The notes: generated from the sequence alone by a model not told the origin. Counted from the first letter of the stretch, positions 1 to 15,964 are shown. The stretch: DNA of 64,000 nt from an uncultured Holophagae bacterium (GCA_963844865.1 CAWJPY010000020.1:48298-112297), one strand, 5' to 3'. Translations and numbers: made by a program.

Positions 1-50
1 CAGTGATCGGCGACGGCGTCGGCCCGCAGCGTCGGCGGCCGCGCTCCGCC
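1..50. repeat. Z arm (CAGYG/CGGCG-rich low-complexity module), left end of four-helix-bundle cassette 1, cut by window edge
   Basis: cagtgatcggcgacggcgtcggcccgcagcgtcggcgg. It uses the same word set as the Z arms at 6.5, 10.5, 29.2, 53.3, 58.9 and 63.4 kb. Confidence 0.5.
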
Positions 51-61
51 CGCGGCGCGCT

Positions 62-184
62 GATGCTTTCGAGGCCTTCCCCGAGGGTGCCACCGCTGAC
101 ACTGTTTCCGGTCCCCACGCGGCGCACGGCCGGCACGTGTCGCTCCGGAAAAGTGGCACCAGTGGCACGCCCGGGGGACGCGCC
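62..184 (+). repeat. Y element copy 1 (long imperfect hairpin)
   Basis: Arms are TGCCACCGCTGACACTGTTTCCGG (88-111) and CCGGAAAAGTGGCACCAGTGGCA (145-167). The conserved 3' tail is CGCCCGGGGGACGCGCC. Confidence 0.8.
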
Positions 185-214
185 GAGGCGTAGCGCTTCG
201 GGAGCACCAGACAG

Positions 215-227
215 GGTGCCTGGCACC
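215..227. repeat. solo X-type palindrome GGTGCCTGGCACC with leader cgggagcaccagacag
   Basis: Exact 13-bp palindrome. The leader is shared with other X left ends. Confidence 0.8.
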
Positions 228-250
228 CCCTCTGGCCTCCCCAGCGACCT

Positions 251-1085: not shown

Positions 1086-2006
1086 TCACTCCGACTCGGC
1101 GCGCTCCGGCCCGCCCTCCAGGAAGGAGCGAATGGCGGCGCTGACGTCGTCGGGGTACTCGGTGATCACCCAGTGGCTGCCATCGGGGATGCGGTGGATC
1201 GTCAGGTCGGGCACGAACTCGGCGAGGCCGTCGAGATTGCCGGGCAGCAGGGCGGTGTCCCCCATGCCCCAGACGACGAGGGTCGGCACGCGGACCCGGT
1301 AGGATCGGGCGGCCAGGAGCTGGTCGGCCAGGGCCGCCGCCAGCTCGCCCTCCGCCTCGTTGCGGGGCGGCGGTGCGGGCATCGCCCGGTAGTAGTTGAG
1401 CGCTCCGGTCAACGCCCCCGGCTGCGACCAGGATTCTATGTAGGCGGCGCGGTCGGCCTCGGTGAGGGCCTCGGGGCGGGTGGAGCCGGAGATGAGGGCG
1501 TCGAGCAACGGCTGGTAGCCGTTCAGGGCCAGCCTCCCCTCGGCGTCGGGCCGGCGCAGGAAGTGCATGTAGGCGCTGGCGTCGCGCTGCGCCTGGGACG
1601 TGGCGAGCTGGCGCAGGAAGACGATGGGGTGGGGGGCGTTCACGATCACCAGGCGGGAGAGGTACTCGGGGTGGGCGAGGGCGAAGGCCCAGGCGACGGC
1701 GCCGCCCCAATCGTGGCCCACCAGAACCGCGGGCGAGCCACCGGCGTAGTGGTCGAGGAGGCCCTTGACGTCGGCCACGAGGTGGCGGGTGGCGTAGGCC
1801 TCCACAGCGGCCGGTTTCTCCGACAGGTTGTAGCCGCGCAGGTCCGAGGCCACCGCCAGGTGGTCGCCGCCGAAGTCCTCGAGCTGGCGGCGCCACAGGT
1901 ACCAGAGCTCGGGGAAGCCGTGCAGAAAGAGTATGGTCGTCCCGGAGCCCCGGCGGACCACGTGCAGCGTGGTGCCGTAGACATCGACGAACTGGTGCTC
2001 GAGCAT
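1086..2006 (-). CDS. alpha/beta hydrolase, epoxide-hydrolase/haloalkane-dehalogenase-like
   Basis: 306-aa ORF with the motifs LHGFPELWYLWRRQ and VGHDWGGAVAW. Confidence 0.8.
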   Translation of the reverse strand: MLEHQFVDVYGTTLHVVRRGSGTTILFLHGFPELWYLWRRQLEDFGGDHLAVASDLRGYNLSEKPAAVEAYATRHLVADVKGLLDHYAGGSPAVLVGHDWGGAVAWAFALAHPEYLSRLVIVNAPHPIVFLRQLATSQAQRDASAYMHFLRRPDAEGRLALNGYQPLLDALISGSTRPEALTEADRAAYIESWSQPGALTGALNYYRAMPAPPPRNEAEGELAAALADQLLAARSYRVRVPTLVVWGMGDTALLPGNLDGLAEFVPDLTIHRIPDGSHWVITEYPDDVSAAIRSFLEGGPERAESE

Positions 2007-2031
2007 CGGCTTGCCTCCCGTGGCGTCGTCG

Positions 2032-2847
2032 TCAGGCGTGCATGCAGATCCCGGCGTAGCCCACGACCGCGGAGACGTCGCCGGAGATCTCGCCCGAGGT
2101 GGCGTAGGCGACGAGGTGGGCGGCGCGGGCGCCGAGACGGTTGGCCGCCTCCAGGGCCGCGGTGGCCGGGATGATCCCGCACATGGTGATGCGCTCGCGG
2201 CGCACGGTCTCGTACAGCTGGCGCGGGTCCCGGGTCAGCGCGGCGTCGATGGCCGCCCGATCACGGCGGCGGGCAGCCTCGTCGGGCTCGTAGTGGGTCA
2301 TGTCCGAGGAGGCGACCACACCCACCGGCTCGCCGAGCCTGGTGATGACCTCGGCCAGCGACGCTCCCAGCGCCAGGCACTCGCCGAGATCCAGGTGGCC
2401 GAGGCACAGGGGCAGGACCCGGAGGTCGGGCTGGCGTCGGAGGAGGAATGGCAGCTGGACTTCGATGGAGTGCTCTCGATGGTGGGCGAGGGCGTCCGGG
2501 CTGGCCTCGGGGACCTCCTCCAAGAGGAGATCGGCCAGCTCGTGGTCCACCGGCACCCTGCCCAGGGGCGTCGCCCATCCGGTATGGGGCGCCACCGCCA
2601 CAGGGGCCCCGAGCCCCGAGTGGTTGGGGCCCAGGACCACCACCCGCCGCGGCACGTCGAGGTGGCGGTACAGCGCGCCCGCCACGCCGCCGGAGTAGAT
2701 GTAGCCGGCGTGGGGGGCGATGCAGGCTAGGAGCTCGTGCCGGTCCCGGGCGACCGGGACCAGCCGTTCCAGCAGGTGCTCCAGGTCTTTCCGAGCGCCG
2801 GGATAGAACGTCCCGGCGACCGCGGTCTGCCGCACCTCCTCGGTCAT
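2032..2847 (-). CDS. amrB: AmmeMemoRadiSam system protein B (Memo-like)
   Basis: 271 aa with AGTFYPG, IAPHAGYIYSG and LGPNHSG motifs. Confidence 0.8.
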   Translation of the reverse strand: MTEEVRQTAVAGTFYPGARKDLEHLLERLVPVARDRHELLACIAPHAGYIYSGGVAGALYRHLDVPRRVVVLGPNHSGLGAPVAVAPHTGWATPLGRVPVDHELADLLLEEVPEASPDALAHHREHSIEVQLPFLLRRQPDLRVLPLCLGHLDLGECLALGASLAEVITRLGEPVGVVASSDMTHYEPDEAARRRDRAAIDAALTRDPRQLYETVRRERITMCGIIPATAALEAANRLGARAAHLVAYATSGEISGDVSAVVGYAGICMHA

Positions 2848-2905
2848 GCTGTCCCTCCCCGGGGTCTGCTGCCACCCTCCAAGCTAGGGTGCCGGCGGGG
2901 CCTGG

Positions 2906-3316
2906 TCAAGTTGGGCCGCCCGCCGCCAGGCGACGCACCAGTTCCGCGTCGGCGGGCGGCATCGGGAAGCTCTCGAGGTCGTCGGGCCGCACCCAGGCCA
3001 TGGCCTGTCCCTCCTGCGGCCGCGGCCGGCCACCGGTGATGGCGGCCGCGAAGAAGAGCAGGCGGATGACGAGCCCGGGCTCGGAGTGGCTGGCTGTCGT
3101 GATCCGCTCTCCCACCTCCACCGCGATGTCGAGCTCCTCCGCCAGCTCCCGCTCGAGGCCCTGGGCGGGCGCCTCGCCGGCTCGCAGCTTGCCGCCGGGG
3201 AACTCCCACAGGCCCGCCATGTGCCGTCCCTCGGGACGCTTGGTCAGTAGGACCTCGCCGCGCTCGTTGCGAATCACGGCCGCCACGACGGTGAATGACC
3301 TGGAAGCGCTTGTCAT
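2906..3316 (-). CDS. NUDIX hydrolase (MutT-like)
   Basis: Nudix box GGKLRAGEAPAQGLERELAEELDI. The start is placed at ATG 3316 (MTSASRSF). The track ORF extends to 3373. Confidence 0.75.
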   Translation of the reverse strand: MTSASRSFTVVAAVIRNERGEVLLTKRPEGRHMAGLWEFPGGKLRAGEAPAQGLERELAEELDIAVEVGERITTASHSEPGLVIRLLFFAAAITGGRPRPQEGQAMAWVRPDDLESFPMPPADAELVRRLAAGGPT

Positions 3317-3446
3317 GCCTCGTGAATCAGGATTGCAGGCCTGAATCCCCTGGCGCTCATTATGTCCGACCATGGTGGTTTCCCGAAGAGTGAGGAGATG
3401 CTTGGGCGTTCGGCCCTCGGCTCCGAAAGATCGAGATCGGTGGCTG

Positions 3447-4979
3447 TCACTCCCGCGACGCAGTGGTGGGAGCGGCCTCCTCCACCGGCGCGGTCTTCGC
3501 CTTCTCGTTCAGGCTGTCGTCGATGCCCGCGATCCGCTTCACCATCTCCTTGCGGCCCTCGATGTCGTACTGGCTGGTGATGGCGATGGACTCCATGATG
3601 GGCGAGCCGCCCCCGTGGTAGTTGCCCACCATGTTGATGCCGCCCGAAGCCGAGCACAGGACGTCGCCCATGTACATCCAGAACTTGGCCGCGTTCTCCG
3701 GGTGGACGTCGGGGTTGCGGGTGATGTACTTGAGGAGCAGGTCCCGGGTCTCGGGGTTGAGGAGGTCGCCCTCGTAGGGGAAGGTGGCCGGCATGCCGCC
3801 CGAGATGTCGGTGAGGATCTCGGCCTCCCGGTACACCGCCTCGCCGGTGAGGCAGCGGCCCACGTTGCAGTAGATGGAGTGGGGGATGTAGCTGCCGGGG
3901 CCGAAGGGCACCGAGCCCATGCCCGGGATGTACACCTCGGGCTTGCCCAGGTCGGAGGCGGTGTAGCCCGCGGCGTAGCCCAGCTCGGAGGTCATGATGA
4001 TCTCGGCCAGCTTGTCGCGGACGTGGGAGGCCTTGGCGATGCCGTTGTACTCCGCCGCCAGGGCCGCCGTGCCCAGCAGGAGGTCGCCGATGGCCGGCTT
4101 GCAGCCGGAGTAGCTGTGGCGGTGGAAGAGGGCGAAGAGCAGGGCCAGGATGCCGCCCATCTGCCACTCCCCGGCCAGGAACACCCGCTCCCACGGGACG
4201 AAGCAGTCCTCGAAGATCATGTACGAGTCGGTGGCGCCGGGCGCGAAGCCGCGCCTGAGCTCCTTGCGGTCCCGCAGGTTGTGCACCGTCACCACCTGCT
4301 TGAGACCGTCCCAGTCGCCGGGGACGGCGAAGGCCACCGCCCAGTCCGCCTCCTCGGGGCGCAGCTGCCGGGTGGGCACCACCAGCACCTCGTCGGCCAC
4401 CGCGGCCTCGGAGATGTGGACTTTGCAGCCGGACACCACGATCCCGTCGGGACGTCGCTCCGTGATGTGCACGTAGGCGTCGGGATCGGGCTGCTCGGCG
4501 GGCCGCAGCATGCGGTGGCCCTTGACGTCTGTCTGGGCGCAGCAGCCCACCAGGTCCTCGCGCTGGAAACGCTCCAGCCACTTCTTGAAGTTGGTGTGGT
4601 ACGAGGTCTTGCCCTGATTCAGGCGGTCCGCCTCGTAGGACACGTTGTAGATGGCGTTGGTGGCGTCGATGCCCATGCAGCGCTGGATGCAGCCGCCCAC
4701 CTTCTGACACAGGAACCGGGTCATGTCCTGCTTCTTGTGCAGGTCCCCCGTGGACTGGTGGATGTGGGTGAAGCGGTTGATCTTCTCCCCCGTGAGGTGG
4801 GAGATCGCCGTGCACAGGCCCTCGTTCGCGGGCTTGAGCGCCTCATCGAAGGTGGTCCCCATCACCTCCAGGCAGGGCTGCATCATGTCGTCGGTGCGGG
4901 ACACCTTGCTCCCGCCCACGTACAGGTTGCGCTTCATCCGACCCAGGCGCTCGATGTACTGCTCCTTGGTCCTCAGCAT
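3447..4979 (-). CDS. abfD: 4-hydroxybutyryl-CoA dehydratase/vinylacetyl-CoA isomerase-like (AbfD family)
   Basis: INRFTHIHQST, CIQRC and HRHSYSGCK match the AbfD [4Fe-4S] ligand motifs as I recall them. ATG 4979 is preceded by GGGGAGG. Confidence 0.75.
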   Translation of the reverse strand: MLRTKEQYIERLGRMKRNLYVGGSKVSRTDDMMQPCLEVMGTTFDEALKPANEGLCTAISHLTGEKINRFTHIHQSTGDLHKKQDMTRFLCQKVGGCIQRCMGIDATNAIYNVSYEADRLNQGKTSYHTNFKKWLERFQREDLVGCCAQTDVKGHRMLRPAEQPDPDAYVHITERRPDGIVVSGCKVHISEAAVADEVLVVPTRQLRPEEADWAVAFAVPGDWDGLKQVVTVHNLRDRKELRRGFAPGATDSYMIFEDCFVPWERVFLAGEWQMGGILALLFALFHRHSYSGCKPAIGDLLLGTAALAAEYNGIAKASHVRDKLAEIIMTSELGYAAGYTASDLGKPEVYIPGMGSVPFGPGSYIPHSIYCNVGRCLTGEAVYREAEILTDISGGMPATFPYEGDLLNPETRDLLLKYITRNPDVHPENAAKFWMYMGDVLCSASGGINMVGNYHGGGSPIMESIAITSQYDIEGRKEMVKRIAGIDDSLNEKAKTAPVEEAAPTTASRE

Positions 4980-5111
4980 GGCTCGACCTCCCCGACGGGA
5001 TCGCAGTAGTGATTCTTGATGATAGGGGAGTGGTCCCACCCTGTCCAGGAGGGAGGCGGCGGCACGTGGGCATGCCCTCGAGCAAGGGGACGAGATCGCG
5101 TGTACGGCGAG

Positions 5112-5380
5112 CTGCGTCGGCGACAGCGGCAGTTCACAGTGGCCGGGACCGGCGTCAGCGGCCAGCGGCAGCGTCGCCGATCAGCGACCGGGGCAGCGAG
5201 CAGCGACCGCGACCGGCGGCGGCCGGCGGCAGCCTCCGCGACGCCCCGCAGTGATTCGCGACCATCTGCACGGGACGCTGTCGCCGGGCGCCGACCGCTG
5301 CCGCTGGACGCTGGCGCTGAACGCTGGCGCTGCCGCGGTCCGGCGGTCCTGTCGCCGCCGCTGACCACCGTCGTCGCCTG
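5112..5380. repeat. Z fold-back: CAGCG-sense arm (about 5112-5215) facing CGCTG-sense arm (about 5274-5380), with no cargo
   Basis: Left arm has cagcggcag..gtcagcggccagcggcagcg..gatcagcgacc..gcagcgagcagcgacc. Right arm has gacgctgtcgcc..ccgctgccgctggacgctggcgctgaacgctggcgctgcc. Confidence 0.6.
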
Positions 5381-5446
5381 CGGAATAGGGGTCGCGGGGC
5401 GGCAGTTGCCAGGGGCAGGCTCGGGCCAGGCAAGGAGTGGAGCCAG

Positions 5447-6514
5447 ATGAGCGGCGGCCGCGACGTCATCGATCGTCCCCAGGGCCCCCGCCCCGGCGAG
5501 GACCTGGACGTGGGGAAGGTGCTGCCCTTCCTCAGACACGCCCTCCCCGACGTGGAGGACGAGGCGGAGGTCCTGCAGTTCCCGGCCGGCTACTCCAACC
5601 TCACCTACCTGCTGCGCGTCGGCGGGCGCGAGCTGGTGCTGCGGCGGCCGCCACCGGGGAGCAAGCCCGCCAGCGGGCACGACATGAAGCGCGAGTACAC
5701 CATCCTGGACGCGCTCCACGGCCACTACCCGTACTGCCCCAAACCCGTCCTCTACGTCGAAGATCCCGAGGCGCTGGGCTGCCCCTTCTACGTCATGGAG
5801 CGCATCAGGGGGATCATCGTGCGCCGCTCGTTCCCGCCCCGGGCCGCGGACCACGAGACGGTCCGCGCGATCTGCGAAGGCCTGGTGGATGCCCTCGCCG
5901 AGCTCCACCTCCTGGACCGGGACGAGGTGGGGCTGTCCGGCCTCGGCCACCCGGAGGGCTACGTGGAGCGCCAGGTGGAGGGGTGGAGCCGGCGCTACCG
6001 TCGGGCACGGACGCCCGACGTGCCCGACTTCGAGGAGGTCATGTCCTGGCTGGCGCGCTGCAGACCGGTGGAGAGCCCGCGCCCGGCCATCATCCACAAC
6101 GACTTCAAGCTGGACAACGTGGTCCTGGATCCTCAGGACCCGCGGCGCCTCATCGGTGTCCTGGACTGGGAGATGGCCACCGTCGGCGATCCTCTCATGG
6201 ACCTGGGCGAGACCCTCTCCTACTGGATCCAGGACGACGACCCCCCCGAGCTGAGGGGCCTCGCCATGACCCCCACCGACGCCCCCGGGGCCCTGCGGCG
6301 GGAGGAGATCATCCAGCGCTATGCGGCGGCCACGGGCTGCGCGGTGGACCACCTCGACTTCTACTACTGCTTCGGTCTTTTCCGGCTCGCCGTGATCTCC
6401 CAGCAGATCTACTACCGCTACTACAAGGGCCAGTCCCACGACCCGCGCTTCGGGATGCTGGGCTACTCGGTGCGCTGCCTGGAGAGCGTCTGCCGCAGCA
6501 TCGTGGACGCGTAG
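5447..6514 (+). CDS. phosphotransferase (APH/choline-kinase-like) family protein
   Basis: 355 aa with catalytic loop IIHNDFKLDNVVL and VLDWEMATVGDPLMDL. Confidence 0.75.
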   Translation: MSGGRDVIDRPQGPRPGEDLDVGKVLPFLRHALPDVEDEAEVLQFPAGYSNLTYLLRVGGRELVLRRPPPGSKPASGHDMKREYTILDALHGHYPYCPKPVLYVEDPEALGCPFYVMERIRGIIVRRSFPPRAADHETVRAICEGLVDALAELHLLDRDEVGLSGLGHPEGYVERQVEGWSRRYRRARTPDVPDFEEVMSWLARCRPVESPRPAIIHNDFKLDNVVLDPQDPRRLIGVLDWEMATVGDPLMDLGETLSYWIQDDDPPELRGLAMTPTDAPGALRREEIIQRYAAATGCAVDHLDFYYCFGLFRLAVISQQIYYRYYKGQSHDPRFGMLGYSVRCLESVCRSIVDA

Positions 6515-6515
6515 C

Positions 6516-6650
6516 GTCGGCGATCAGCGGCCGTGACCGCGAGCAGCGGCAGCGACGGCGATCCGCGACAGCGGACCGTGCCAGCGGCGGCGGAGTGAAC
6601 GGCGTCGGCGACAGCAACCAGCGACCGCGGCAGCGACCGGGACCGCGCCC
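6516..6650. repeat. Z arm (CAGCG sense)
   Basis: gcgatcagcggcc..gagcagcggcagcgacggcg..cgacagcgg..cagcgaccgcggcagcgacc. Confidence 0.6.
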
Positions 6651-6695
6651 GTGATGATCCACGAGAGGCTTCGAGAGCACCAGAGAGGGTGAGAG

Positions 6696-6762
6696 GGTGC
6701 CTGGCACGCCGTCTTGATTCGACAGGACGCGGATCGCTGCATTCGAAAGCGTGCCTGGCACC
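6696..6762 (+). repeat. X element copy b (subfamily 1, slightly degenerate ends)
   Basis: GGTGCCTGGCACg, then ccgtcttgattcgacaggacgc..cattcgaaag, then cGTGCCTGGCACC. Confidence 0.8.
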
Positions 6763-6794
6763 CGCTCTGGCCTATCCGACGCGTAGGCAACGGC

Positions 6795-6923
6795 GACGCG
6801 CCGATTCTTTCGGCGCGTTCCCCGAGGTTGCCACCGCTGACACTTTTCCGGTCCCCACGCGAGGCGCGGCCGGCACGCGTCGCTCCGGAAAAGTGTCACC
6901 AGTGGCACGCCCGAGGGACGCGC
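6795..6923 (+). repeat. Y element copy 2 (reference copy)
   Basis: 5' mini-hairpin GCGCCGAttcttTCGGCGC. Arms are TTGCCACCGCTGACACTTTTCCGG (6828-6851) and CCGGAAAAGTGTCACCAGTGGCA (6885-6907). Tail is CGCCCGAGGGACGCGC. Confidence 0.85.
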
Positions 6924-6960
6924 TGTTCTCTCGACGGCCGCTGCCCCCGTGAGCAGAGAG

Positions 6961-7027
6961 GGTGCCAGGCACCGTCACGATCGAGCCGAGAAGGGTAGAC
7001 GCCGCATCTTCAACGGTGCCTGGCTCC
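6961..7027 (+). repeat. X element copy c (subfamily 2, right end degenerate)
   Basis: GGTGCCAGGCACC, then 41 nt, then GGTGCCTGGCtCC. Leader is gagcagagag. Confidence 0.7.
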
Positions 7028-7058
7028 CACTCTGGCAAACCCGACGCTTCTTCGAGCG

Positions 7059-8501
7059 TCAATCCCCGGCCCAGATGGGAGGGTGTTTGCCTGCCCACGG
7101 GCGCGCCTCCTCCAATTGCGATGCCAGGCGGAAGAGAGTCGCCTCGTCGCCGTAGCGAGCGACGAACTGGACCCCGATGGGCAGACCATCGCCATTCCAC
7201 GACAGGGGCACCGACATGGCGGGCTGGCCGGTGATGTTGGCGATGGCGGTGTACGCGGCGAAGCGGGCGCCGCGCTCGAAGGCGGCCATGGGATCGTCCT
7301 CGGACTGGGCGAGGGCGCCGAGGGGCAGGGGCGGCTCGGCCAGGGTGGGGGTGAGCCAGACGTCGAAGCTCCGCTGCCAGGCCGCCAGCCGGCGGGCGGC
7401 ACCCTGCAGGCGTTGGACGGCGAGCAGGTAGTCGCCGCCGGTGAAGGTCCTGCCGAGCTCGTACAGGGCCCAGGTCAGGGGCTCGAAGAGCTCGCGCTCC
7501 GGGTGGCCGCCGTGGAGCGCGGCGGCGGCCGCCATGGTGCTGACCACGCTCGAGCTCCACACCACCGTGAAAGCCTGGGCGAGCATGCCGTCGCCGCCCA
7601 GAGAGGGGCTCGCCTCCACCACCTCGTGGCCGAGCTCGGAGCAGAGCGCGGCGGCATCTTCCACCGCGGCAACGCAGTCCGGGTGGGTGGTGTCGTCGGT
7701 GCCCCGTCCCTTGGTGACCGCGATCCGCAGGCGACCGCAGCGGCCGCCCACCTCGGCCGCGAAAGGACGCTCCGGCGGCTCCGGCCAGTAGGGCGCGCCC
7801 ACGTCGGGACCCGAGGTGGCGTCGAGCAGCGCCGCCGAGTCGCGCACCGACCGGGTCAGGGCGTGCTCCTCGACGAGGCCGCCCATGACGTCGCCGAAGA
7901 GGGGGCCCTTGGGGTTGCGCTGGCGGGTCGGCTTGAGCCCGAAGAGGCCGCAGCAGGAGGCCGGGATGCGGATGGAGCCGCCGCCGTCGTTGCCGTGGGC
8001 CATGGGCACCATGCCCGCGGCCACCGCCGCCGCCGAGCCGCCGCTGGAGCCGCCCGGAGTGCGGGCCGGGTCCCAGGGGTTGCGGCAGGGACCGAAGAGG
8101 GCGGGCTCGGTGGTGGGCACCAGCCCGAGCTCGGGGGTGTTGGTCTTGCCCAGGAGGACCAGGCCGGCCCGGCGCAGGCGGAGAACGAGCTCCGAGTCGT
8201 ATTCTGAGACGTAGCCGGCAAATGCGCGCGACCCCAGGGTCAGGCGCGCGCCCCGGCAGGCGGCCAGCAGGTCCTTGACGAGGAACGGGACGCCGGTGAA
8301 GGGCCCTCGGGGCAGGTCCCCCAGGGCCAGCTCGCGGGCCTCCTCGTACATGGGCGTGACCACGGCATTGAGCCGCGGGTCCACCGCGGCGATGCGGGTG
8401 ATCGCGGCCTCCACCAGCTCGTGGGGCGTCACCTCGCCGCGTTCGACCAACTCGGCCTGGGCGGTGGCGTCGACTCCCGCGAGCTCCTGGGCGAGGGACA
8501 T
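7059..8501 (-). CDS. amidase (amidase-signature family)
   Basis: AS motif [30 protein letters not shown]. The start is placed at ATG 8501 (MSLAQELAG). The track ORF runs further 5' to 9017. Confidence 0.85.
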
Positions 8502-8685
8502 GGCGGCTCCTCCTCGAGCGATCCCGGCGTGGGGCACCATAGCAGGACGCGCCATCGCCTTGCGCCTGGACGCGGGATCGAGCAGACTCCGGGGCACGGC
8601 CAAGGCGGTGGCGAGGATCCCCGGCGCCGGTGGGTCGACCGGCGGGTCAGGGTCGACCGGGGGCGGAGAGCCTCCTGGAGGTTGC

Positions 8686-10110
8686 ATGCGACGCTTCGAC
8701 GCGATCGTGCTCGGTTGCGGGCCCGGAGGGGAGCGTGCGGCCATCCAGGCGGCCAGGGCCGGACGCTCGGTGGCGGTGGTGGAGCAGGCCAACGTGGTGG
8801 GGGGGAACCGGGTCAACTGGGGGACCATCCCCTCCAAGACGCTGCGCGAGAGCGCCGTCTTCGTGCGCAACCTGACCCGGAACAAGATGGAGGGCATCCG
8901 GGTCGAGATCGCCGAGGAGATCACGGTCGCCGACTTCATGTATCGCGAGCGCCGGGTGGTGCAGCGGGAGCTGGAGCTGATCAACGAATCCCTGGCCCGG
9001 TACCACGTGGAGGTCATCGAGGGTCACGGGCGCTTCGCCGACACCAACACCGTCACCGTCTCCGCTCCCGACGGCGAGGTGCGGGAGACGCTGGTCGGCG
9101 ACGTCATCGTCATCGCCACCGGATCGCGCCCCAACCGCCCCCGGGACGTGCCCTTCGACGGCGAGCTGGTCTTCGACTCGGAGAGCATCCTGCACCTGCC
9201 GAGCATGCCCCGCTCCATGGTCGTCCTCGGCGCGGGGGTCGTCGGTGTGGAGTACGCCTCCATCTTCGCCGCCCTGGGCATCGCGGTGACCCTGGTGGAC
9301 ACCCGCGATCGGCTGCTGCCCTTCTTCGACAGGGAGATTGCCGGCGTGCTGGCCCACGAGCTGGAGCGGTCAGGCGTCACCACGGTCCACGAGCAGCACC
9401 ACACCACCATCGAACGCGTCACGGCCCCCCGTCCCCACGTGCGCTGCCACACCGATGCCTCGGAGGTGTTCGAGGCGGATGTCCTCCTGTACTGCGTGGG
9501 CCGCCAGGGCAACAGCGACGACATCGGCCTGGACGCTATCGGTCTGACGGCCAACCCCTACGGGCAGCTCCAGGTCAACGAGCACTACCAGACCGCCCAC
9601 CCCCACATCTACGCCGTGGGCGACATCGTCGGCTACCCGGCCCTGGCCTCCACCTCCATGGAGCAGGGCCGGCGCGCCATTCGCCACGCCTTCGCGATCT
9701 CCGGTCCCAACCTGGCCGAGGACGAGCTCCCCTTCGCCATCTACTCCATCCCCGAGGTGAGCTACATCGGCCTCACCGAGGAGGCCCTCATCGAGCGCGG
9801 GGTCGAGTACGTGTCGGGGCGCGGCAACTACGACAAGAACCCGCGGGGGCAGATCATCGGCGACCGCTCCGGGCTGCTCAAGCTCCTGTTCTCCGTGGAA
9901 ACCCTGGAGCTGCTGGGCGCCCACATCATCGGTTACAGCGCGTCGGAGCTCATCCACATCGCGCAGGCCTTCCTGCGCGCCCGGGCCACCGCCGTGGTCA
10001 TCGCCGAGACGCTGTACAACTACCCGACCCTGTCCGACTGCTACCGGCACGCCGCCCAGGTCGCCCTGGCCGAGCACTACCGCCGCACCGGGCGCCAGGC
10101 TTGGGCGTGA
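8686..10110 (+). CDS. sthA: soluble pyridine nucleotide transhydrogenase-like flavoprotein (SthA family)
   Basis: [35 protein letters not shown] and a pyridine-nucleotide-disulfide-oxidoreductase dimerisation end. A GGAGG sits upstream of ATG 8686. Confidence 0.75.
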
Positions 10111-10128
10111 CGAGGCGGCGGGGAGAGG

Positions 10129-10452
10129 ATGGTCGCCACCTGGCTGCTCGTGCTCCTGGGCGGGTTCCTCCTCTTCGAGCTGGCCGAGCACGTTGTGCTG
10201 CCCCTCGTGCTGGCCTGGAAGATGAGGAAGCGGCGGTCCGTGAGCGGCGCCGAGGGCATGGTGGGCAAAGTCGTCCAGGTCAAGGCCTGGCGGGGCGGCG
10301 AGGGACAGGTGATGGTGGACGGCGAGCTCTGGACGGCCGTCTGTACTGCGGAGCTGGAGCCGGGCGATCGGGCGGTGGTGGAGAGGGTCGCGGGGCTCGT
10401 GCTTGAGCTCAACAGGCCTCCGGGAGAGGGACGCGCCGGGCGAGCCAGTTGA
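10129..10452 (+). CDS. NfeD-family membrane protein (C-terminal OB fold)
   Basis: 107 aa with an N-terminal TM helix, then GKVVQV..GEGQVMVDGELWTA..LEPGDRAVVERVAGLVLEL. Confidence 0.7.
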   Translation: MVATWLLVLLGGFLLFELAEHVVLPLVLAWKMRKRRSVSGAEGMVGKVVQVKAWRGGEGQVMVDGELWTAVCTAELEPGDRAVVERVAGLVLELNRPPGEGRAGRAS

Positions 10453-10477
10453 GGGCCGGGGTCCTGTGAAGCGGGGC

Positions 10478-10570
10478 TGTCAGCGGCGGCGACCGCGGAC
10501 AGCGACCGCGATCGGTGTCAGCAATCAGGGACAGCGGCAGCGCTCTGCGACGGCGGTCAGCGGCGGTGAT
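10478..10570. repeat. Z arm (CAGCG sense)
   Basis: gtcagcggcggcgaccgcggacagcgaccgcgatcgg..gacagcggcagcg..ggtcagcggcgg. Confidence 0.6.
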
Positions 10571-10610
10571 CCGCGTCCGGTTGCTGCAAGACCGGAACGA
10601 CCGGGGGGGA

Positions 10611-10714
10611 GCACCTCTCTCGGGCGTTTCACTGGTGACGCTTTTCCGAGGGAGGGCGGACCGCCGCTGCGTCGCCCCCGGTCGGAAAAGTGTCAGCGGT
10701 GACAACCGTGGGGG
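10611..10714 (-). repeat. Y element copy 6 (reverse orientation, diverged 5' flank)
   Basis: Reverse complement reads TTGTCACCGCTGACACTTTTCCGA...TCGGAAAAGCGTCACCAGTGAAACGCCCGAGAGAGGTGC. Confidence 0.75.
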
Positions 10715-10760
10715 TGCGGTGGGAGAAGACCCTGTCGGTGCACCCTGCGATGTCAAAGCC

Positions 10761-10828
10761 GGTGCCAGGCACCCCGTCTTGATTTGAAAGGCACGCGGAT
10801 CGCTCCCTCCGAACGGGTGCCTGGCACC
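10761..10828 (+). repeat. X element copy d (subfamily 1)
   Basis: GGTGCCAGGCACC, then ccgtcttgatttgaaaggcacgcggatcgc..ccgaacg, then GGTGCCTGGCACC. Confidence 0.85.
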
Positions 10829-10847
10829 GGCTCTTTCTCTGCAGACC

Positions 10848-12688
10848 TCAGAACCTGTACTCGCCGTCCCTCACGCGGGCGTGGATGTCGGGAGTGAGGG
10901 GCCGGTACGACGGCTCGCCGGGGAGGAGGACGAAGAGGGGGTCGGCGACCAGGGCCGGGTCGAACGCCTCGTTCCGGAGGCGCACCCGCTTGATCTTGTG
11001 GGTGGGGGTCGACTCGAGGTCGGAGCACAGGCGCAGGAACCTGGGCACCGCGTACGAAGGCAGGTAACGCTCGAGGTGGGAGGCGAGGCCCGCCAGGTCC
11101 AGGTGCTCGGACGTTCCCTCCGGGACGACGGCGATCATGCCGGCGCGCCCGTCTCCGCCGGGCATCGTCACGCCGTAGGCCGCCGCCAGCGCCACGCCGG
11201 GAAAGCTGTTCACCACCTTCTCGACCTCGGTGGTGGAGACGTTCTCCCCCTTCCAGCGGAAGGTGTCGCCGGTGCGGTCGGAGAACTGGACGTGGCCCCA
11301 GCCCATGGGGCGCACCAGGTCGCCGGTGTCGAACCATGCGTCGCCGGCGGCGAAGACGTCGTGCAGGATCTTGGTCTGGGTCGCCTCTGGGCTCGTGTAA
11401 CCGGCGAAGGGGTTGGACGCGGAGATCTCGCCGAGGAGGAGACCGGCCTCGCCGACCTTCACCCGCTCCATCCACCCGCCTGGACCGCGCACCGGTTCCT
11501 CGTTGTCCACGTCGTAGCGGACCACGGCGTAGGGCACCAGGCAGACCCCCACCGTGCGGTCCAGGTTCAGCAGGTTCACGAAGTAGAGGTTGGACTCGGC
11601 GGCGCCGTAGATTTCGTAGACGTGGGTGATGCCGAACCGATGCTTGAAGGTGTCCCAGATGTCGGGGCGCAGGCCGTTGCCGATGACCTTGCGCAGGGGG
11701 TGGTCGCGGTCGTCGGGCCGCGGTGGCTGCTTCACCAGGTAGCGGCAAGCTCGCCCACGTAGCACCAGATGGTGGCGTCGAAGCGCCGCACGTCGTCGAG
11801 GAAGCGGCTGGCGCTGAACTTGCGCTGGATGGCGACGGCGGCGCCCCCCGCGAACACCGCCGGCCAGCTCAGGGCGATGGCGTTGGTGTGGAAGAAGGGC
11901 AGGGGCACGAACAGGGTGTCGCCCGGCTTGATGTCGAGCACCACCCGGCCGTTGAGGTAGCGGGACTTGACCAGCCGGCCGTGGGGGATGACCGCCGCCT
12001 TGGGCATGCCGCCGGTGGTGCCGGAGGTGAAGACGTAGGCGATGGGGTCCGACGGCGTCACCGTGGCCGTGGTGGGCGGATTGCCGCAGGGGCATGAGGC
12101 CGCCGCGGCGACGAGGTCGACGAAGCCCGCGGGCGTGGGTGTCTTGCCCCGGTCGGGCACCCAGAGGAGCGTCTGCTCCTCGCCGGGCGCCAGGTCCGGC
12201 AGCACCTCCTGGAAGGGACCGAGCATCTCCTCGCCGATGACGAAGGCGCGGGCCGGGTTGAGGGCGAGGCAGTGGCGGAGGGAGTCGAGGCGGAGGTTGG
12301 TGTTGATCAAAGCGCTGACGGCGCCGATCTTGGCCAGGGCCGAGTAGATGACCAGCAGCTCCGCCCGGTTCTCCAGGACCACGGCCACCACGTCCCCCTT
12401 GCCGATGCCCAGGGACGTGAAGTGGTGAGCGTGCCGATTCGCCGCCGCGTTGAACTGGGCCCACGTGAGGTCGGTCTGAGGCGATTTGATGGCGGGGTGT
12501 GCGGGGTATGCCGCGGCGTTCTCCTCCAGCATGCTCCCCCAGGACTCCCGGTTCTCAGCGTCCACGCGCGCCATGCTGCGCAGGGCCGGGAGGATGCGGG
12601 GGAGCCGCCAGGAGAGGCGGAGGAGGGCGCCGAGAAAGCGGGGCAAGGACACGCGGGCGGCGGAGCTCGTCTGTGGCGCGTCGTCCAT
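10848..12688 (-). pseudogene. very-long-chain acyl-CoA synthetase / fatty-acid transport protein-like, one frameshift near 11747
   Basis: The N-terminal 318-aa ORF (YVFTSGTTGGMPKAAV AMP motif) ends ..IWCYVGELAATW. The C-terminal part continues in another frame as (C)RYLVKQPPRPDD..FDTGDLV..WKGENVST. One nt is missing between GAGCT and TGCCGC. Confidence 0.8.
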
Positions 12689-12841
12689 CCGTCCCCCTCC
12701 TCGACCCGCCGTCGGCTGCGGCGTGCAATCAATCTAGGGAGCGGCGCGGCAGGCGTCAAGAAGAGGCCGCAGGCGGCCCGTCGCTGCGCTCGGCGGTCAT
12801 CGCAGTGATCAGCGAGGTCTCGCTCCGAGACCAGCGGAGAG

Positions 12842-12908
12842 GGCGCCAGACACGCCGTCTTGATTCGAGAGCCCACTCATCGCTTCATGGGAAAGCGTGC
12901 CTGGCACC
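12842..12908 (+). repeat. X element copy e (subfamily 1, left end degenerate)
   Basis: GGcGCCAGaCACg, then ccgtcttgattcgagagcccactcatcgcttcatgggaaag, then cGTGCCTGGCACC. Confidence 0.7.
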
Positions 12909-12984
12909 CCCTCTGTCATCGCCGGAGCGTCTTCGTGCCACCATGTATCGATCGGCGACGGCGAAGCGAGAGTAAGATCGCGCC

Positions 12985-13775
12985 ATGTCCGACGCATTCG
13001 ACCGGCTCGTTGGCATCATGGACCGGCTCCGGGACCCGGGGGCTGCCCCTGGGACCGGGAGCAGACCCTGGACACCCTCACCGGCTACCTTCTGGAGGAG
13101 GCCCACGAGGTTGTGGACGCGGCCGCCGCAGGCGAGCCCGAACGCCTGCGCGAGGAGCTCGGCGACCTCCTCCTGCAGGTGGTCTTCATGGCCCGCATCG
13201 CCTCCGAGAAGGGCTGGTTCGACGCCTCGGGGGTGTGCGACGCCATCAGCGAGAAGCTGATCCGGCGACACCCCCACGTGTTCGGGGAACGGGAGGTGGA
13301 GGGGGCCGCCGAGGTGGTGCGCAACTGGGAGGAGATCAAGCGCGCCGAGCACGCCGCGGAGCCGGAGTCCTCGACCCTGGACGGGGTACCCCGCTCCCTG
13401 CCGGCCCTCCTCAAGGCCTTCCGCATGACCGAGAAGGCGGCGGCGGTGGGCTTCGACTGGCACAAGCCCGGCGACGTCATGGGCAAGCTCCACGAGGAGG
13501 TGGGCGAGCTCGAAGCCGAGCTGCCGCGCCTGGAGGGGGAGGACCCGGCGCGGGTGCGGGAGGAGCTGGGGGACGTGCTCTTCGTCATGGCGAACCTCGC
13601 CCGTCACCTCGGAGTTGAGCCGGAGACCGCCCTGCAGGCCACCAACACCAAGTTCAAGACGCGCTTCCAGGCCATGGAGGCCGCAGCCCGCGCGTCCGGC
13701 CGCCGTCTGGCCGACATGTCCCTGGCCGAGCAGGACGAGCTGTGGGAGCAGGCGAAGAAGACGGCGGGTTGCTGA
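12985..13775 (+). CDS. mazG: nucleoside triphosphate pyrophosphohydrolase MazG, with one apparent frameshift in a C/G run near 13036-13042
   Basis: MSDAFDRLVGIMDRLRDP (frame a) continues as GGCPWDREQTLDTL..EEAHEV..RRHPHVF (frame b). It has a second MazG domain. Confidence 0.8.
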
Positions 13776-13776
13776 G

Positions 13777-13789
13777 GGTGCCTGGCACC
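13777..13789. repeat. solo X-type palindrome GGTGCCTGGCACC, 1 nt after the mazG stop
   Basis: Exact 13-mer followed by cgctctggcctatccgg, as at 6762-6780. Confidence 0.8.
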
Positions 13790-13822
13790 CGCTCTGGCCT
13801 ATCCGGAGTGACATCTCTCGGG

Positions 13823-13950
13823 CCGCGCCGATTCTGTCGACGCGCTTCCCGAGATTGCCACCGCTGACACTTTCACGACCGCACGTCACGCACGGTCGGT
13901 CCGCCCCACTTCGTGAAAGTGTCACCAGTGGCACGTCCGAGGGACGCGCC
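13823..13950 (+). repeat. Y element copy 3
   Basis: Arms are TTGCCACCGCTGACACTTTCACGA and TCGTGAAAGTGTCACCAGTGGCA. The distal stem is changed in a compensatory way relative to copy 2. Confidence 0.85.
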
Positions 13951-14030
13951 CTTCTCTCGGAGGACGCTGGCCCAAGTGAGCGGATCGCTGCCGCTGACCT
14001 CGGGGTAGGCCCTGAGAGAAGGGAGCGTCG

Positions 14031-15011
14031 CTACTTCCCAGATCGACTCCCCTTGCCATCCCACCAGATCAGGATGAGCCACGCCAGGGCGCCGTAGACG
14101 GCGGCGAAGAGCAGGCCCCAGAGGTGGGTCGCGAGGCCGGTGGCGGCGGCGATGCCCGGCGCAACGCCGAGGGCCGAAAACCCCGCGGTCCACCCGGCTT
14201 CGAGGGTCCCGAGGTTGGCGACGAGGCCCACGGGAAGCAGGTTGGCGAGGGAGCCGGCGGCGGAGCCCGCGACGACGGTCATGGGGGGCCACCGGTACCC
14301 GAGGGCGACGAGCAGGAAGAACACGGACGCCCAGGTGAAGGCCCAGACGAGGAGGGACGCCAGGGCCGCGGCGGCCAGCCGGAGGGGCCGGGCGGTGAGG
14401 GCGGTGACGGCGCGGCGCAGACGGCGGATGCGGCGCGTCCAGCGGCGTCCCCCGAGCCCCCGCGGCGCCAGGAGGCGCACGGCCAGCCGGTCGGCGGCGG
14501 CCAGGGTCCAGGGCAGGGCCAGGGCGGGAGCCAGGAGGGCGGCGGCGACCGCCAGCGCCAGGGGGTGGTCGAGCCTCGACACGGCCAGGAAGGCGCCACC
14601 CGCCCATACGCCCAGCGCGGCCAGGTCCAGGGCGCGGGCGGCGAGGAGCGTGCCGACGCCGGAGGCCAGGTCCAGACCGGCGACGCGACGCAGCAGCAGC
14701 GGCAGGGCCGCCTCGCCGGCGCGGGCCGGCACGAACAGGGTCGCCGCCTGGGCGACGGCCACGGTGAGGACGGCGGGGACGGGCCGCAGCTCGCCCCCGG
14801 GGATGAGCAGCAGCAGACGGACGCCGCGGGCGGCCAGGACCAGGGCCGCCGCCGCCGCCGCAGGCAGGAGCCCCGGCAGGTGGGTGGTGGCGAGGAGCCG
14901 CCACACCGCGGCGGGGCCTGCGACGGCCAGCACGCCCCCCAGGAGGGCCAGCGCCAGCGCGGCGCCGGCCGCTCGCCGCCACCCCCGGTGGCCCGTGCCG
15001 GCGGTGCTCAC
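14031..15011 (-). CDS. polytopic membrane protein, flippase-like/UPF0104 (lysyl-PG-synthase TM-region-like)
   Basis: Many hydrophobic segments. The GTG start overlaps the stop of the upstream GT2 gene (GTGA). Confidence 0.5.
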   Translation of the reverse strand: MSTAGTGHRGWRRAAGAALALALLGGVLAVAGPAAVWRLLATTHLPGLLPAAAAAALVLAARGVRLLLLIPGGELRPVPAVLTVAVAQAATLFVPARAGEAALPLLLRRVAGLDLASGVGTLLAARALDLAALGVWAGGAFLAVSRLDHPLALAVAAALLAPALALPWTLAAADRLAVRLLAPRGLGGRRWTRRIRRLRRAVTALTARPLRLAAAALASLLVWAFTWASVFFLLVALGYRWPPMTVVAGSAAGSLANLLPVGLVANLGTLEAGWTAGFSALGVAPGIAAATGLATHLWGLLFAAVYGALAWLILIWWDGKGSRSGK

Positions 15012-15964
15012 GGTCTCTTGGCCGCGGCGCCGCCGGCCCGTCGCTGCCGGACCACCGCTTCCTCCAGGAGGCGGCGGTTGACGGCGATGAGGTCGGCCAC
15101 GATCCCCACCACCCACACCTGCACGCCGACCACGATGAGGATGACGGCCAGGATCAGGGACTGGACGTGCCCCGCCGGCGAGTGCTGGGCCACGTAGAAG
15201 TACAGGAAGCGTACCAGCAGGGCGAAGCCGACCACGACCGGCACGGCGCCCAGACGGAGGAAGATGCGCAGGGGGTTGTAGAGCACGACGATGCGGGCGA
15301 TGCTCTCCAGGGACCGGATCACGTAGGTGGTGTTGGACGAGAAGAGCCGGGACTCGGAGCGGGAGGGCGGGTTGACCCCAACCGGCACCGAGGCCACCTT
15401 GAGGCCGGCCTCTCCCGCCTGGAGGATGGTCTCCAGGGTGTAGGTGAAGCGGGTGAACACGTGCAGCCTGAGGGCCGCCTCCCGGGAGATGGCGCGGAAG
15501 CCGGAGGTGGCGTCCCGCACCGTGGTGTGGGAGAGCCGGCGCACCACCCAGGAGCCGAGCTTCTGGAGGGCCTTCTTGATGGGGGAGAAGTGGGGCACGG
15601 CGGAGACCTGGCGGTCCCCGATCACCATCTGCGCCTCGCCCGCCAGGATGGGCTCGACCAGCGCCGGGATGTCCTCCGCCCGGTACTGGTTGTCGGCATC
15701 GGTGTTGACCACGACGTCCGCGCCGCCGGCCACGGCGTGGGCGAGCCCGGTGGCGAACGCCACCGCCAGCCCCCGGTGGACCGGGAGACGGACCACCTCG
15801 GCGCCCGCGGCCGCGGCGATCTCGGCGGTCCGGTCTCCAGAGCCGTCGTCCACCACCAGGAGGGCGACCTCGTCGAAGCCCGCGACGCGTCGGGGCAACG
15901 CCGCCAGGGTCTGGGCGAGCTGCAGCTCCTCATTCCACGCGGGGATCTGGATCACCAGCTTCAT
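15008..15964 (-). CDS. family 2 glycosyltransferase (polyprenyl-phosphate sugar synthase-like)
   Basis: MKLVIQIPAWNEE, VVDDGSGDRT, NTDADNQY and C-terminal TM helices. Start is ATG 15964. Confidence 0.8.
   Translation of the reverse strand: MKLVIQIPAWNEELQLAQTLAALPRRVAGFDEVALLVVDDGSGDRTAEIAAAAGAEVVRLPVHRGLAVAFATGLAHAVAGGADVVVNTDADNQYRAEDIPALVEPILAGEAQMVIGDRQVSAVPHFSPIKKALQKLGSWVVRRLSHTTVRDATSGFRAISREAALRLHVFTRFTYTLETILQAGEAGLKVASVPVGVNPPSRSESRLFSSNTTYVIRSLESIARIVVLYNPLRIFLRLGAVPVVVGFALLVRFLYFYVAQHSPAGHVQSLILAVILIVVGVQVWVVGIVADLIAVNRRLLEEAVVRQRRAGGAAAKRP

Follow-up and report, generated by a model that had tools for sequence, protein, structure and literature searches.

Hairpin mosaics with oriented edge arrays in the intergenic gaps of an uncultured Holophagae bacterium: a candidate REP/REPIN/BIME-like system

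Two ordinary chromosomal genes of an uncultured Holophagae bacterium, an APH-family kinase gene (5447-6514, plus strand) and an amidase gene (7059-9017, minus strand), converge on a gap at positions 6516-7058 that is filled with repeated, palindromic DNA. What is this DNA, how did it come to lie there, and how does it relate to the similar patches in other gaps of the same genome? We addressed these questions in the stretch of 64,000 nt that contains the gap (GCA_963844865.1, CAWJPY010000020.1:48298-112297; hereafter the window, with a composition of ~70% GC). We consider it probable, at roughly 60%, that the gap belongs to a new, lineage-specific system of non-autonomous DNA hairpin elements resembling repetitive extragenic palindromes (REPs), the hairpins formed by REP doublets (REPINs) and bacterial interspersed mosaic elements (BIMEs), with nested elements, slippage-prone oriented edges and rapid turnover of gap contents. 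The modules involved, designated P, X, X', Y and Z, were annotated with nhmmer profiles and, for Z, with a rule that requires clusters of at least three CAGCG or CGCTG in 60 nt. Z arms that read CAGCG on the plus strand are referred to as Zs and those that read CGCTG as Za, while plus and minus signs indicate the orientation of the other modules. By these means the gap reads Zs X+ Y+ X'+ over 6525-7041, and it is composed of the following features.

6516-6650, plus strand: Zs arm of degenerate 6-, 7- and 13-nt CAGCG units, starting 2 nt past the TAG stop codon of the APH-family gene (5447-6514).
6667-6790, plus strand: X of subfamily Xa, a REPIN-like doublet hairpin (nhmmer match 6691-6773, score 83).
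6776-6822, plus strand: left flank of Y (part of the conserved flanks, V) and unpaired 5' tail, reading ...CGACGCG followed by CCGATTCTTTCGGCGCG; the fixed XY junction, from an 11-copy alignment.
6823-6913, plus strand: Y hairpin, with arms at 6823-6851 and 6885-6913 and a loop of ~32 nt.
6914-6950, plus strand: right flank of Y (V, CGCGCTGTTCTCTCGACGGCCGCTGCCCC), from alignments.
6936-7042, plus strand: X', a variant doublet of P (nhmmer match 6940-7041, score 91).
7043-7058, no strand assigned: remnant of the ancestral gap, GACGCTTCTTCGAGCG, directly before the amidase stop codon (TCA on the plus strand, 7059-7061); conserved in the relative L102.

The X of this gap contains the short palindrome P (GTGCCTGGCAC) at 6697-6707 and again at 6751-6761, 54 nt apart, with the core GTCTTGATTCGACAG...CGAAAG and the outer arms CTTCGAGAGCACCAGAGAGG and CCGCTCTGGCCTATCCGA. 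Its X' has one P (GTGCCAGGCAC) at 6962-6972, a degenerate second P at ~7016-7026 and a core that differs from that of X. Within the Zs arm, TRF reports a period of 19 at 6520-6578. When the entire gap is folded as single-stranded DNA, X, Y and X' form separate hairpins (z = -4.9).

What was added to this gap can be gauged from L102, the closest relative found, whose APH protein is 81% identical. Its APH and amidase genes converge as well, and the ends of both are conserved. There the gap measures 27 nt instead of 543 nt and reads TGA-ccagcgaccgc-gacgagtcttcgaccg-TCA. The last 16 nt match positions 7043-7058 of the window, and the other 11 nt resemble a single Z unit. Because these last 16 nt are shared, a mosaic of ~527 nt stands where L102 has 11 nt, and 7043-7058 marks the right edge of the inserted mosaic.

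Contigs of metagenome Ga0315542 derive from the same population as the window. Two of them, L036 and L041, are 99.6% identical to 1093-21029, L057 is 99.8% identical to 61099-64000, and L031 is 95-98% identical to 47585-60195. The mosaic at 6516-7058 is present in the separate contig L036 with 4 small differences, so that it is not an artefact of assembly. Comparison of the window with itself identified 5.77 kb of repeated DNA in 20 merged intervals (~9% of the window), and most of the stretches longer than 280 nt that have no codon periodicity coincide with these repeats. All of the intervals named in the preliminary description of this DNA were found to hold the modules assigned to them, and its view of the modules as extragenic, palindromic and non-randomly arranged was borne out. 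Its tally of 3.5-4 kb also agrees with ours once the ~1.8 kb that belongs to a fourth gap component, described below, is subtracted. For copy counts we used 365 kb of non-redundant high-GC sequence, consisting of the window and loci from related metagenome contigs, in which 59 X, 15 X' and 28 Y copies, together ~100, were detected.

The elementary unit of the first hairpin family is not X, as had been proposed, but P, a palindrome with the core GGTGCC-W-GGCACC and the arms CCAGAG... and ...CTCTGG, which in some copies is extended further by CTTCGGGAGCA... and ...TGCTCCCGAAG. There are 172 P sites with at most one mismatch in the 365 kb, while 0.55 exact sites are expected from composition, and all 19 window sites of the 11-mer GTGCCWGGCAC lie inside repeat patches. 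The distance between P centres is quantised (54 nt in 57 cases, 53 in 9, 42 in 10, 64 in 6 and 38 in 4), and P occurs in clusters of 1 to 4 units with conserved linkers, the central A/T bases of neighbouring units being mostly A-then-T (44 pairs). X and X' are doublets in which two inverted P units, spaced at 54 nt, enclose a conserved core, and the "solo palindromes" noticed previously are single P units. X is ~110 nt long with inverted ends of ~30 nt. An alignment of 44 X copies yields one long consensus hairpin of 13 pairs, 2 of which covary between the subfamilies Xa and Xb (CG to GC in 14-17 copies), and the X spacer is conserved to the same extent as the palindromes (82% versus 85%). Next to many Xb copies lie additional P units, which are joined on by a repeating unit of 42 nt made up of P and a linker. 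The X' copies at 6940-7041, 375-480 and 20888-20993 are grouped in one repeat family, D10.

The second hairpin family, Y, is unrelated to P. It consists of a 5' tail, a stem of 24 predicted pairs, a loop and the conserved flanks V, with which it spans ~130-170 nt. In an alignment of 23 non-redundant copies the stem is paired in 95.5% of cells and 10 of the 24 pairs have changed on both sides, values that none of 500 shuffles reached and that no slid control came close to. The loop is 32 nt long in 22 of the 23 copies; its pairwise identity is 54%, compared to ~83% for the arms. By hand count, G-U and A-C intermediates are about equally frequent in the stem (~15 versus 14). X precedes Y in the same orientation in 12 of 18 X-Y adjacencies (chi-square p = 7e-4), and the resulting composite XY unit of ~300 nt has in most cases a fixed junction of 20-24 nt between the annotated matches, with a sequence that is conserved in the 11-copy alignment; three XY copies carry an extra module of 40 nt. 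Since this unit is copied whole, it accounts for much of the apparent "grammar" of the gaps. The fixed order that had been proposed (Z, X, Y, a leader with the X palindrome, Z) reduces to two rules, namely that Z is outermost and faces inward and that X and Y form a composite, and other orders occur as well. The proposed hairpin within a hairpin is borne out by two Y copies (25-215 and 17825-18015), which are flanked by halves of an extended P. The hexamer GACGCG is present both in the left flank and at the right end of the Y junction, and it could be a target or cleavage motif, or a microhomology.

The Z arms are of a different nature. They are arrays of degenerate 6-, 7- and 13-nt units with the core CAGCG, spaced at 6, 7, 13, 19 or 26 nt, which grade into perfect 13-nt arrays (e.g. 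TGCCGCCGCTCAC x18.5 at 795-1034) and, at their outer ends, into CCCGCG- or GCGGAC-type hexamers. Z is outermost and inward-facing in 29 of 30 cases (binomial p = 6e-8), the left-hand arms then carrying CAGCG on the plus strand and the right-hand arms CGCTG. The arms adjoin both 3' ends (22) and 5' ends (13) of genes, so that it is the gap, and not transcription, to which their orientation is tied. Two arms that share a gap resemble each other no more than arms taken from different gaps do (0.21-0.27 versus a mean of 0.234). This rules out that they are in-register inverted duplicates or the terminal inverted repeats of one element, and with it the proposal that they form paired arms. Apart from one marginal genic case at 42671, all clusters of CAGCG or CGCTG lie in gaps, so that Z is not a low-complexity sequence that is found equally inside genes. 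Outside the gaps CAGCG has no strand skew (132 versus 138), though the GC skew suggests a single direction of replication. The gap described earlier as an empty shell at 5112-5380 does contain two facing Z arms and nothing else (Zs Za, 5156-5332). The DNA fold of this shell (5104-5350, z = -3.2) is better than that of shuffled sequences only because the two arrays carry complementary motifs, and the pairing of its arms does not extend beyond this shared motif. There is some similarity between Z and the Y stem, as TGCCGCCGCTCAC matches TGCCACCGCTGAC of the stem at 11 of 13 positions and GTCAGCGGCGGC resembles GTCAGCGGTGGC; this is a small excess over shuffles that is partly circular, the arms having been selected for CAGCG.

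At the outermost right-hand side, Z takes the form of a run of G-rich hexamers (GCGGACGCGGACGCGGGGG; GGGCGCGGGCGTGGACGGGGGAGGG), as seen at 63770-63800, 18085-18112 and 1040-1080, and the complement is found at left-hand edges. The run at 63770-63800 has four G-tracts and therewith the potential to form a G-quadruplex. The right boundaries at 13994-14002 and 18104-18112 are both GGGGTAGG (...ACCTCGGGGTAGGCCC and ...GCGGGGGTAGGGCGG). This shared boundary may be a coincidence, but GTAG also tags the main superfamily of REPs.

Besides X, Y and Z, which were the only modules in the preliminary inventory, there is a fourth recurrent gap component. This is a four-helix-bundle gene of family PF05635 (E = 1.4e-15 for the intact copy C), which is followed by a long palindrome and 13-nt repeats. 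Three copies of the element are present (246-1085, 20733-21131 and 53403-54005; A, B and C), each between Z arms. The palindrome of ~150 nt upstream of the gene mirrors the region of the gene start (ATGAACGACCCGGAGGTGACCAT versus ACGAACGACCCGGAGTGACCAT). X' takes the place of the central part of the gene in copies A and B. These two X' are 92% alike and the adjacent gene segments only 70%, which suggests independent insertions at the same place or gene conversion. The array at 795-1034 (TGCCGCCGCTCAC x18.5, 100% matches) takes the position of Za beside the long palindrome of element A. Contig L036 ends at window position 1093, just past this array, which probably broke its assembly. Shorter perfect arrays of related units (TGCCGCCGAACGC, TGCCGCCGATCGC) are found at 18036-18061, 21062-21091 and 53976-54002. 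A family gene that lies between complementary flanks (here Zs and Za, in three gaps of the window) is also characteristic of the intervening sequences of 23S rRNA, but the copies described here are located between protein-coding genes rather than in rRNA, and the likeness concerns the fourth component only and not X, Y or Z. Directly behind the 13-nt repeats of element B, and ahead of the stop codon of a CinA-like gene, lies a 7-nt tandem repeat, ACTTCTA x5.7, at 21119-21158 in surroundings that are otherwise 70% GC.

Comparison of strains showed that entire gap contents have been replaced, which the preliminary description could not have revealed. In L041, at 99.6% identity to the window, the P, Y+ and Za of gap 13779-13996 give way to Zs and another Y paralogue, oppositely oriented (L041:7714-7936), with breakpoints 3 nt past a stop codon and at ACCTCGGGG. 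A simple inversion is ruled out, as the two Y paralogues have different loops and compensating stem changes. Likewise, gap 53300-53987, with Zs, the four-helix-bundle gene, the palindrome and 13-mers, corresponds to Zs X' Y Za in L031:5706-6213 (95-98% identical), the replaced span starting 15 nt ahead of the stop codon of the left gene and ending at that of the right gene. At a third locus (L001:2500-2620 versus L052:990-1130), an orthologous X is accompanied by Za in one sequence and by Y- in the other. Overall, the flanks of whole-gap replacements are 93-99.6% identical and the breakpoints lie at, or at most 15 nt from, the flanking stop codons. On a smaller scale, L044 (~94-95% identical) lacks the Y half-hairpin downstream of groEL and has a V site in which CTCGCGACGCG directly joins CCCTTCTCTC, and a second V site without Y was found in L020. 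Repeat patches that are shared between the 99.6%-identical strains are about as stable as genes (0.48% versus 0.33% differences, no indels of unit length), which rules out hypermutation of the repeats.

Beyond these close relatives, L103 and L104 (63-67% APH identity, conserved synteny) each contain a single long hairpin in the convergent gap, unrelated in sequence (hairpins and arrays at L104:622-903 and L103:11060-11206 and 9735-9765), and in L103 there is no repeat load comparable to that of the window. Upstream of the APH gene of L104, inverted hexamer arrays of the type (CCCGTN)n...(NACGGG)n surround a hairpin (CCCGTA/CCCGTC...GGGAAC/GGGGAC), and on the G-rich side they conform to a G-quadruplex motif. 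The principle of flanking a hairpin with oriented short repeats may predate the X, Y and Z sequences. A search for the X core pattern in one genome per species (185,579 genomes) gave a single match, in the metagenome-assembled genome (MAG) "MAG: Acidobacteria bacterium ALJrbin.24" (L001), which has the same layout of stop codon, Z and then X as the window and is ~93% identical to another Ga0315542 contig. No match to 6516-7058 was obtained in 5,426 E. coli genomes by sensitive blastn, none to the repeats in plasmids, and none to X, X' or Y in viral contigs by nhmmer; 35 matches of 16-22-mers to viral contigs are attributed to chance, as nhmmer gave them no support, and matches in low-GC metagenomes were set aside by GC content as probable chance. 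Searches of the literature by sequence, sample identifier and MAG name retrieved no description of these repeats.

Are the modules active as DNA or as RNA? As the preliminary description had called for, we related the patches to gene junctions and found 26 in convergent, 21 in tandem and 3 in divergent gaps (p = 1e-5 versus 1:2:1), a bias towards convergent and tandem gaps that has likewise been reported for REPs in published surveys (PMC3733652). Within gaps between tandem genes, the orientation of solitary X was 4 times along and 6 times against transcription, and that of Y 3 versus 4 by hand reading of the patch list. No T-run was present at the ends of X or Y. Between 5000 and 19000 there are 2 terminator-like sites compared to 2.5 expected from shuffles, and this absence of an excess rules out that the modules are canonical intrinsic terminators. 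Taken together, the data favour the idea that DNA is the level at which the elements act or, at any rate, spread, and that they are tolerated in places where promoters are unaffected. A symmetric hairpin may nevertheless have a role in RNA.

Other identities were considered and rejected. Rfam gave 0 matches at the gathering score over the 64 kb window, which rules out a known structured RNA family, and at a relaxed threshold only generic hairpin (miRNA-precursor) matches, far below threshold, were obtained. A reading of CTGGCAC as part of a sigma-54 promoter fails because the GG-N10-GC spacing is unmet in X or P. An integron with attC sites or a cassette array, considered solely in view of the exchange of gap contents, is likewise dismissed, as the scanned genes encode no integrase domain and the flanking genes are housekeeping genes in both orientations. 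Apart from the genes already mentioned, the window encodes GroEL (59300-60955, minus strand), a CCA/poly(A)-polymerase-family protein, an M3 peptidase, HpaB, MazG, alanine dehydrogenase, a sigma-54 activator and other proteins, and it contains zero tRNAs. Internal repeats at 42346-42418 and 42798-43081, inside a large gene with PD40 and proprotein-convertase domains (41164-43830), are unrelated to the intergenic modules and are probably protein repeat domains.

The remaining gap mosaics in the window are listed below. By nhmmer and the CAGCG rule, four of them give the module strings Zs Y- X+ (10532-10837), X+ Y+ Za (17750-18091), Zs Y- X- X'- (58899-59245) and Zs Y+ Za (63428-63756).

1-245, plus strand: Zs (cut by the window start), Y+ at 55-184, single extended P at 194-245.
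246-1085, no strand assigned: copy A of the four-helix-bundle element, with minus-strand gene remnants, X' at 375-480, a 150-nt palindrome at 645-794, TGCCGCCGCTCAC x18.5 at 795-1034 and outer GCGGAC-type repeats.
5104-5350: gap between divergent genes with only Zs (~5104-5225) and Za (~5275-5350).
10474-10840: Zs, Y- at 10610-10721, X+ at 10755-10837.
12822-12939, plus strand: solitary X at 12837-12919.
13775-13996: single P, Y+ at 13823-13950, Za.
17725-18111: X+ at 17750-17830, Y+ at 17855-17983, half of an extended P (CGGGAGCACCAGAGA), Za with GCCGAACGCTGCC x2, outer GCGGACGCGGACGCGGG.
20651-21131: Zs, truncated copy B of the four-helix-bundle element (X' at 20889-20993), 13-nt repeats TGCCGCCGAACGC x2.3.
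27954-28055, plus strand: solitary X that supplies the stop codon of open reading frame 26702-27997.
29158-29393: Zs, X- at 29297-29378.
45576-45864: Y- at 45613-45739, Za.
53308-54005: Zs, intact four-helix-bundle gene (minus strand, ~53435-53812, PF05635), long palindrome, 13-nt repeats that run up to the next gene's stop codon.
58873-59249: downstream of groEL, Zs, half Y- at 59008-59054, X- at 59105-59187, a further P at 59212.
63437-63803: Zs, Y+ at 63528-63659 (stem subfamily with compensatory changes), Za, outer G-rich hexamers.

The solitary X in the gap at 27954-28055 illustrates that X can supply stop codons. Its GTCTTGATT at 27990-27999 provides the TGA at 27995-27997 of the GAPDH-like reading frame, the last ~10 codons of which are therefore encoded by the repeat. 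Downstream of groEL, this gene has its own hairpin and T-run at 59250-59280 (GACCCGGGCATCCGCCCGGGTCTTTT on the minus strand) ahead of the repeat mosaic. The next gene, which is ABHD18-like, has a TACAAT 7 nt upstream of its ATG (~58862-58885), at the outer edge of Z, and this site looks like a promoter of the leaderless type.

How the modules are copied, by what kind of enzyme, and whether they have a function for the host are matters on which we can offer what we infer from the patterns described above. X, X' and Y would be non-autonomous elements that act as DNA, and an enzyme provided in trans would recognise the folded single-stranded hairpins and copy them, for which the REP-associated tyrosine transposases (RAYTs) or HUH tyrosine transposases of the IS200/IS605 type offer a precedent. 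New copies would land preferentially in or beside existing ones, which would produce nesting and mosaics. The Z arrays would probably grow and shrink by replication slippage, and the contents of the gaps would turn over by deletion and by ectopic recombination among the many paralogous copies.

The closest counterparts of this system are the REPINs and RAYTs of Pseudomonas fluorescens SBW25 (Bertels and Rainey; PMC3337134, PMC3116915). A REPIN likewise consists of two inverted copies of a high-copy extragenic palindrome at quantised distances that fold into one long hairpin, with central bases from which the orientation can be read, and it is accompanied by singlets, longer palindromic singlets and higher-order clusters (PMC3337134); REPINs are also lineage-specific. 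They differ in having variable spacers, whereas the X spacer is conserved, and in the present system the P stem measures 5-6 bp around a single central base and is joined by the extra Y family and the oriented Z arrays. The conceptual likeness to BIMEs that had been noted before is supported by the inverted pairs and clusters of P at 54, 42, 38 and 64 nt with their conserved linkers, without any match to E. coli sequences. The enterobacterial BIMEs (PMC3333891, PMC2817692) contain regularly spaced REPs that alternate in orientation with a few conserved linkers, and they are extragenic, located mostly after genes and variable between strains. In contrast, the modules described here have no similarity to those of E. 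coli, are larger (~110 nt for X, ~130-170 nt for Y with its flanks), make up ~9% of the window and are bordered by arrays of oriented 6-, 7- and 13-nt units, which are not a described feature of BIMEs. The GTAG and CGTC superfamilies of REPs (Di Nocera et al. 2013; PMC3733652) share with P that they are small GC-rich stem-loops arranged as head-to-head dimers with conserved spacers between convergent and unidirectional reading frames, and many P copies are directly followed by CGTC. Acidobacteria are not named in the parts of that survey that were consulted. Finally, miniature inverted-repeat transposable elements (MITEs), such as Correia of Neisseria and Nezha of cyanobacteria, are also small, non-coding, high-copy intergenic hairpins with terminal inverted repeats that can supply stop codons and insert into one another, but the unit described here is built of repeated internal palindromes and not of two simple terminal repeats. 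Judged against the REP and BIME descriptions consulted, the Y family, the strictly oriented Z arrays and the four-helix-bundle cargo go beyond what has been reported.

Several observations weigh against this assignment to REP-like mobile hairpins. There is no RAYT and no other transposase or integrase domain among the window genes scanned against Pfam, a tblastn search with an IS200 TnpA sequence (a weak test) found nothing in 405 kb, and within the same 405 kb no related autonomous insertion sequence with the same ends is present. The CGTC that follows GGCAC in many Xb copies (GGCAC-CGTC-TCTGG) and in the junction between P and the core is absent from Xa and variable in offset. No GTAG tag beside P was noticed by eye in the alignments, of which no formal scan was made. 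The stem of P, 5-6 bp with a single central base, does not fit the published CGTC families (PMC3733652), which have stems of 8-9 bp starting with A-T, loops of 4-5 nt and a CCA tail, none of which P has. The flanks of 49 X copies contain no consistent direct repeat indicative of a target-site duplication, many of these flanks being further P units; such a lack is expected for elements of the IS200/IS605 type but provides no positive support. The V sites without Y could be deletions between the direct repeats of GACGCG rather than empty target sites, the replacement of gaps could reflect recombination between strains rather than transposition, and the conserved stems with diverged loops could reflect selection at the level of the host. 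Moreover, neither slippage nor transposition explains the strict inward orientation of Z, and at the divergent HpaB/APH gap the Zs...Za arrangement is kept at the same position in L102, though the sequence has changed. This conservation and orientation hint at a constraint or a function.

An alternative explanation lies at the RNA level, with the hairpins serving the host as terminators, insulators or mRNA-stabilising 3' structures, as proposed for REPs, and the mosaics being kept by selection. REP surveys come to the conclusion that many REPs are transcribed and may act as RNA (PMC3733652). The presence of 52% of the repeat patches in convergent and of 6% in divergent gaps would be understandable on this basis, as would the compensatory changes in stems whose loops drift, the start of Z arrays a few nt from stop codons and the single long hairpins of L103 and L104 in the same convergent gap. 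We regard this explanation as unlikely all the same: X and Y have no orientation bias relative to transcription, the equal frequency of G-U and A-C intermediates in the Y stem and the 2 versus 2.5 terminator-like sites speak against it, groEL has a separate canonical terminator before the modules, L102 manages with a gap of 27 nt, gap contents are swapped between near-identical strains, and modules also adjoin the 5' ends of genes. An explanation that relies on low complexity or on faulty assembly of a GC-rich metagenome bin has a practically negligible probability. It could appeal to the 70% GC, to the 132 and 138 copies of CAGCG outside the gaps and to the breaking of metagenome contigs at the largest repeats (L036 at 1093), but independent contigs reproduce the mosaics at 99.6% identity, P sites are more than 300-fold above expectation, CAGCG clusters are confined to gaps and the hairpins covary.

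The remaining alternatives concern the Z arrays. The geometry in which RecBCD and AddAB recognise Chi is established, and the Chi sequence of B. subtilis is AGCGG. With CAGCG on the strand that ends 3' at a central break, the arrays have the geometry of Chi recognition, and they could be functional oriented sites (Chi-like sites, or sites for a recombinase or nucleoid protein) that guard genes from break-prone palindromes, promote repair and drive the exchange of cassettes. We consider this improbable, as CAGCG is unskewed outside the gaps, a 5-mer is too frequent to serve as Chi in a genome of 70% GC, no protein partner was identified, and some gaps have hairpins without Z and others Z without hairpins. 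It would, on the other hand, make sense of the orientation rule in 29 of 30 cases regardless of the adjacent gene end, of the Z arrangement kept in L102 (APH 81% identical) despite sequence change, of the inverted hexamer arrays around a hairpin in L104 and of whole-gap replacement between strains. We also give little credence to the related proposal that the gap as a whole is an organised, exchangeable cassette, in which the outer CCCGCG-type hexamers and the CAGCG arrays are functional sites (Chi-like, or bound by a recombinase or nucleoid protein) that face a break-prone palindromic centre, and which can carry the PF05635 gene. The arrays would shield the genes on either side and promote the recombinational exchange of entire cassettes between loci and between strains. 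If true, a novel type of system for exchanging intergenic cassettes would be at hand, and given the arrays of L104 it might be conserved in other sequence guises across the wider clade. That each filled gap is one large composite transposon, with Z as terminal inverted repeats and X, Y and the four-helix-bundle gene as cargo, is very improbable in view of the arm similarities (0.21-0.27 versus a mean of 0.234), the differences between arms in length and unit, the many gaps with one arm or none, the lack of a transposase among the cargo and the positional conservation of the HpaB/APH arrangement in L102, which looks like vertical inheritance. The observations that would suit such a transposon are that Z arms bracket other modules in inverted orientation, that a protein-coding gene can sit between them, and that entire gaps including Z are replaced between strains, in one case from 15 nt before a stop codon.

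REPs, REPINs and BIMEs have been studied almost entirely in Proteobacteria, and it is still debated how they are mobilised, whether they harm or benefit the host and how their mosaics arose. The system described here stands out by its density, with a palindromic unit roughly every 2 kb, by its occurrence in an uncultured lineage of high GC content, by the combination of two unrelated hairpin families with strictly oriented tandem arrays, and by whole-gap replacement at 99.6% identity. In practical terms, metagenome assemblies of this lineage are interrupted at the repeats, genes can owe their stop codons to them, and they could be used to tell strains apart. If the enzyme that drives these elements were found, REPIN biology would be extended to a new phylum, and the gaps compared here would provide natural before-and-after pairs for the invasion of a gap.

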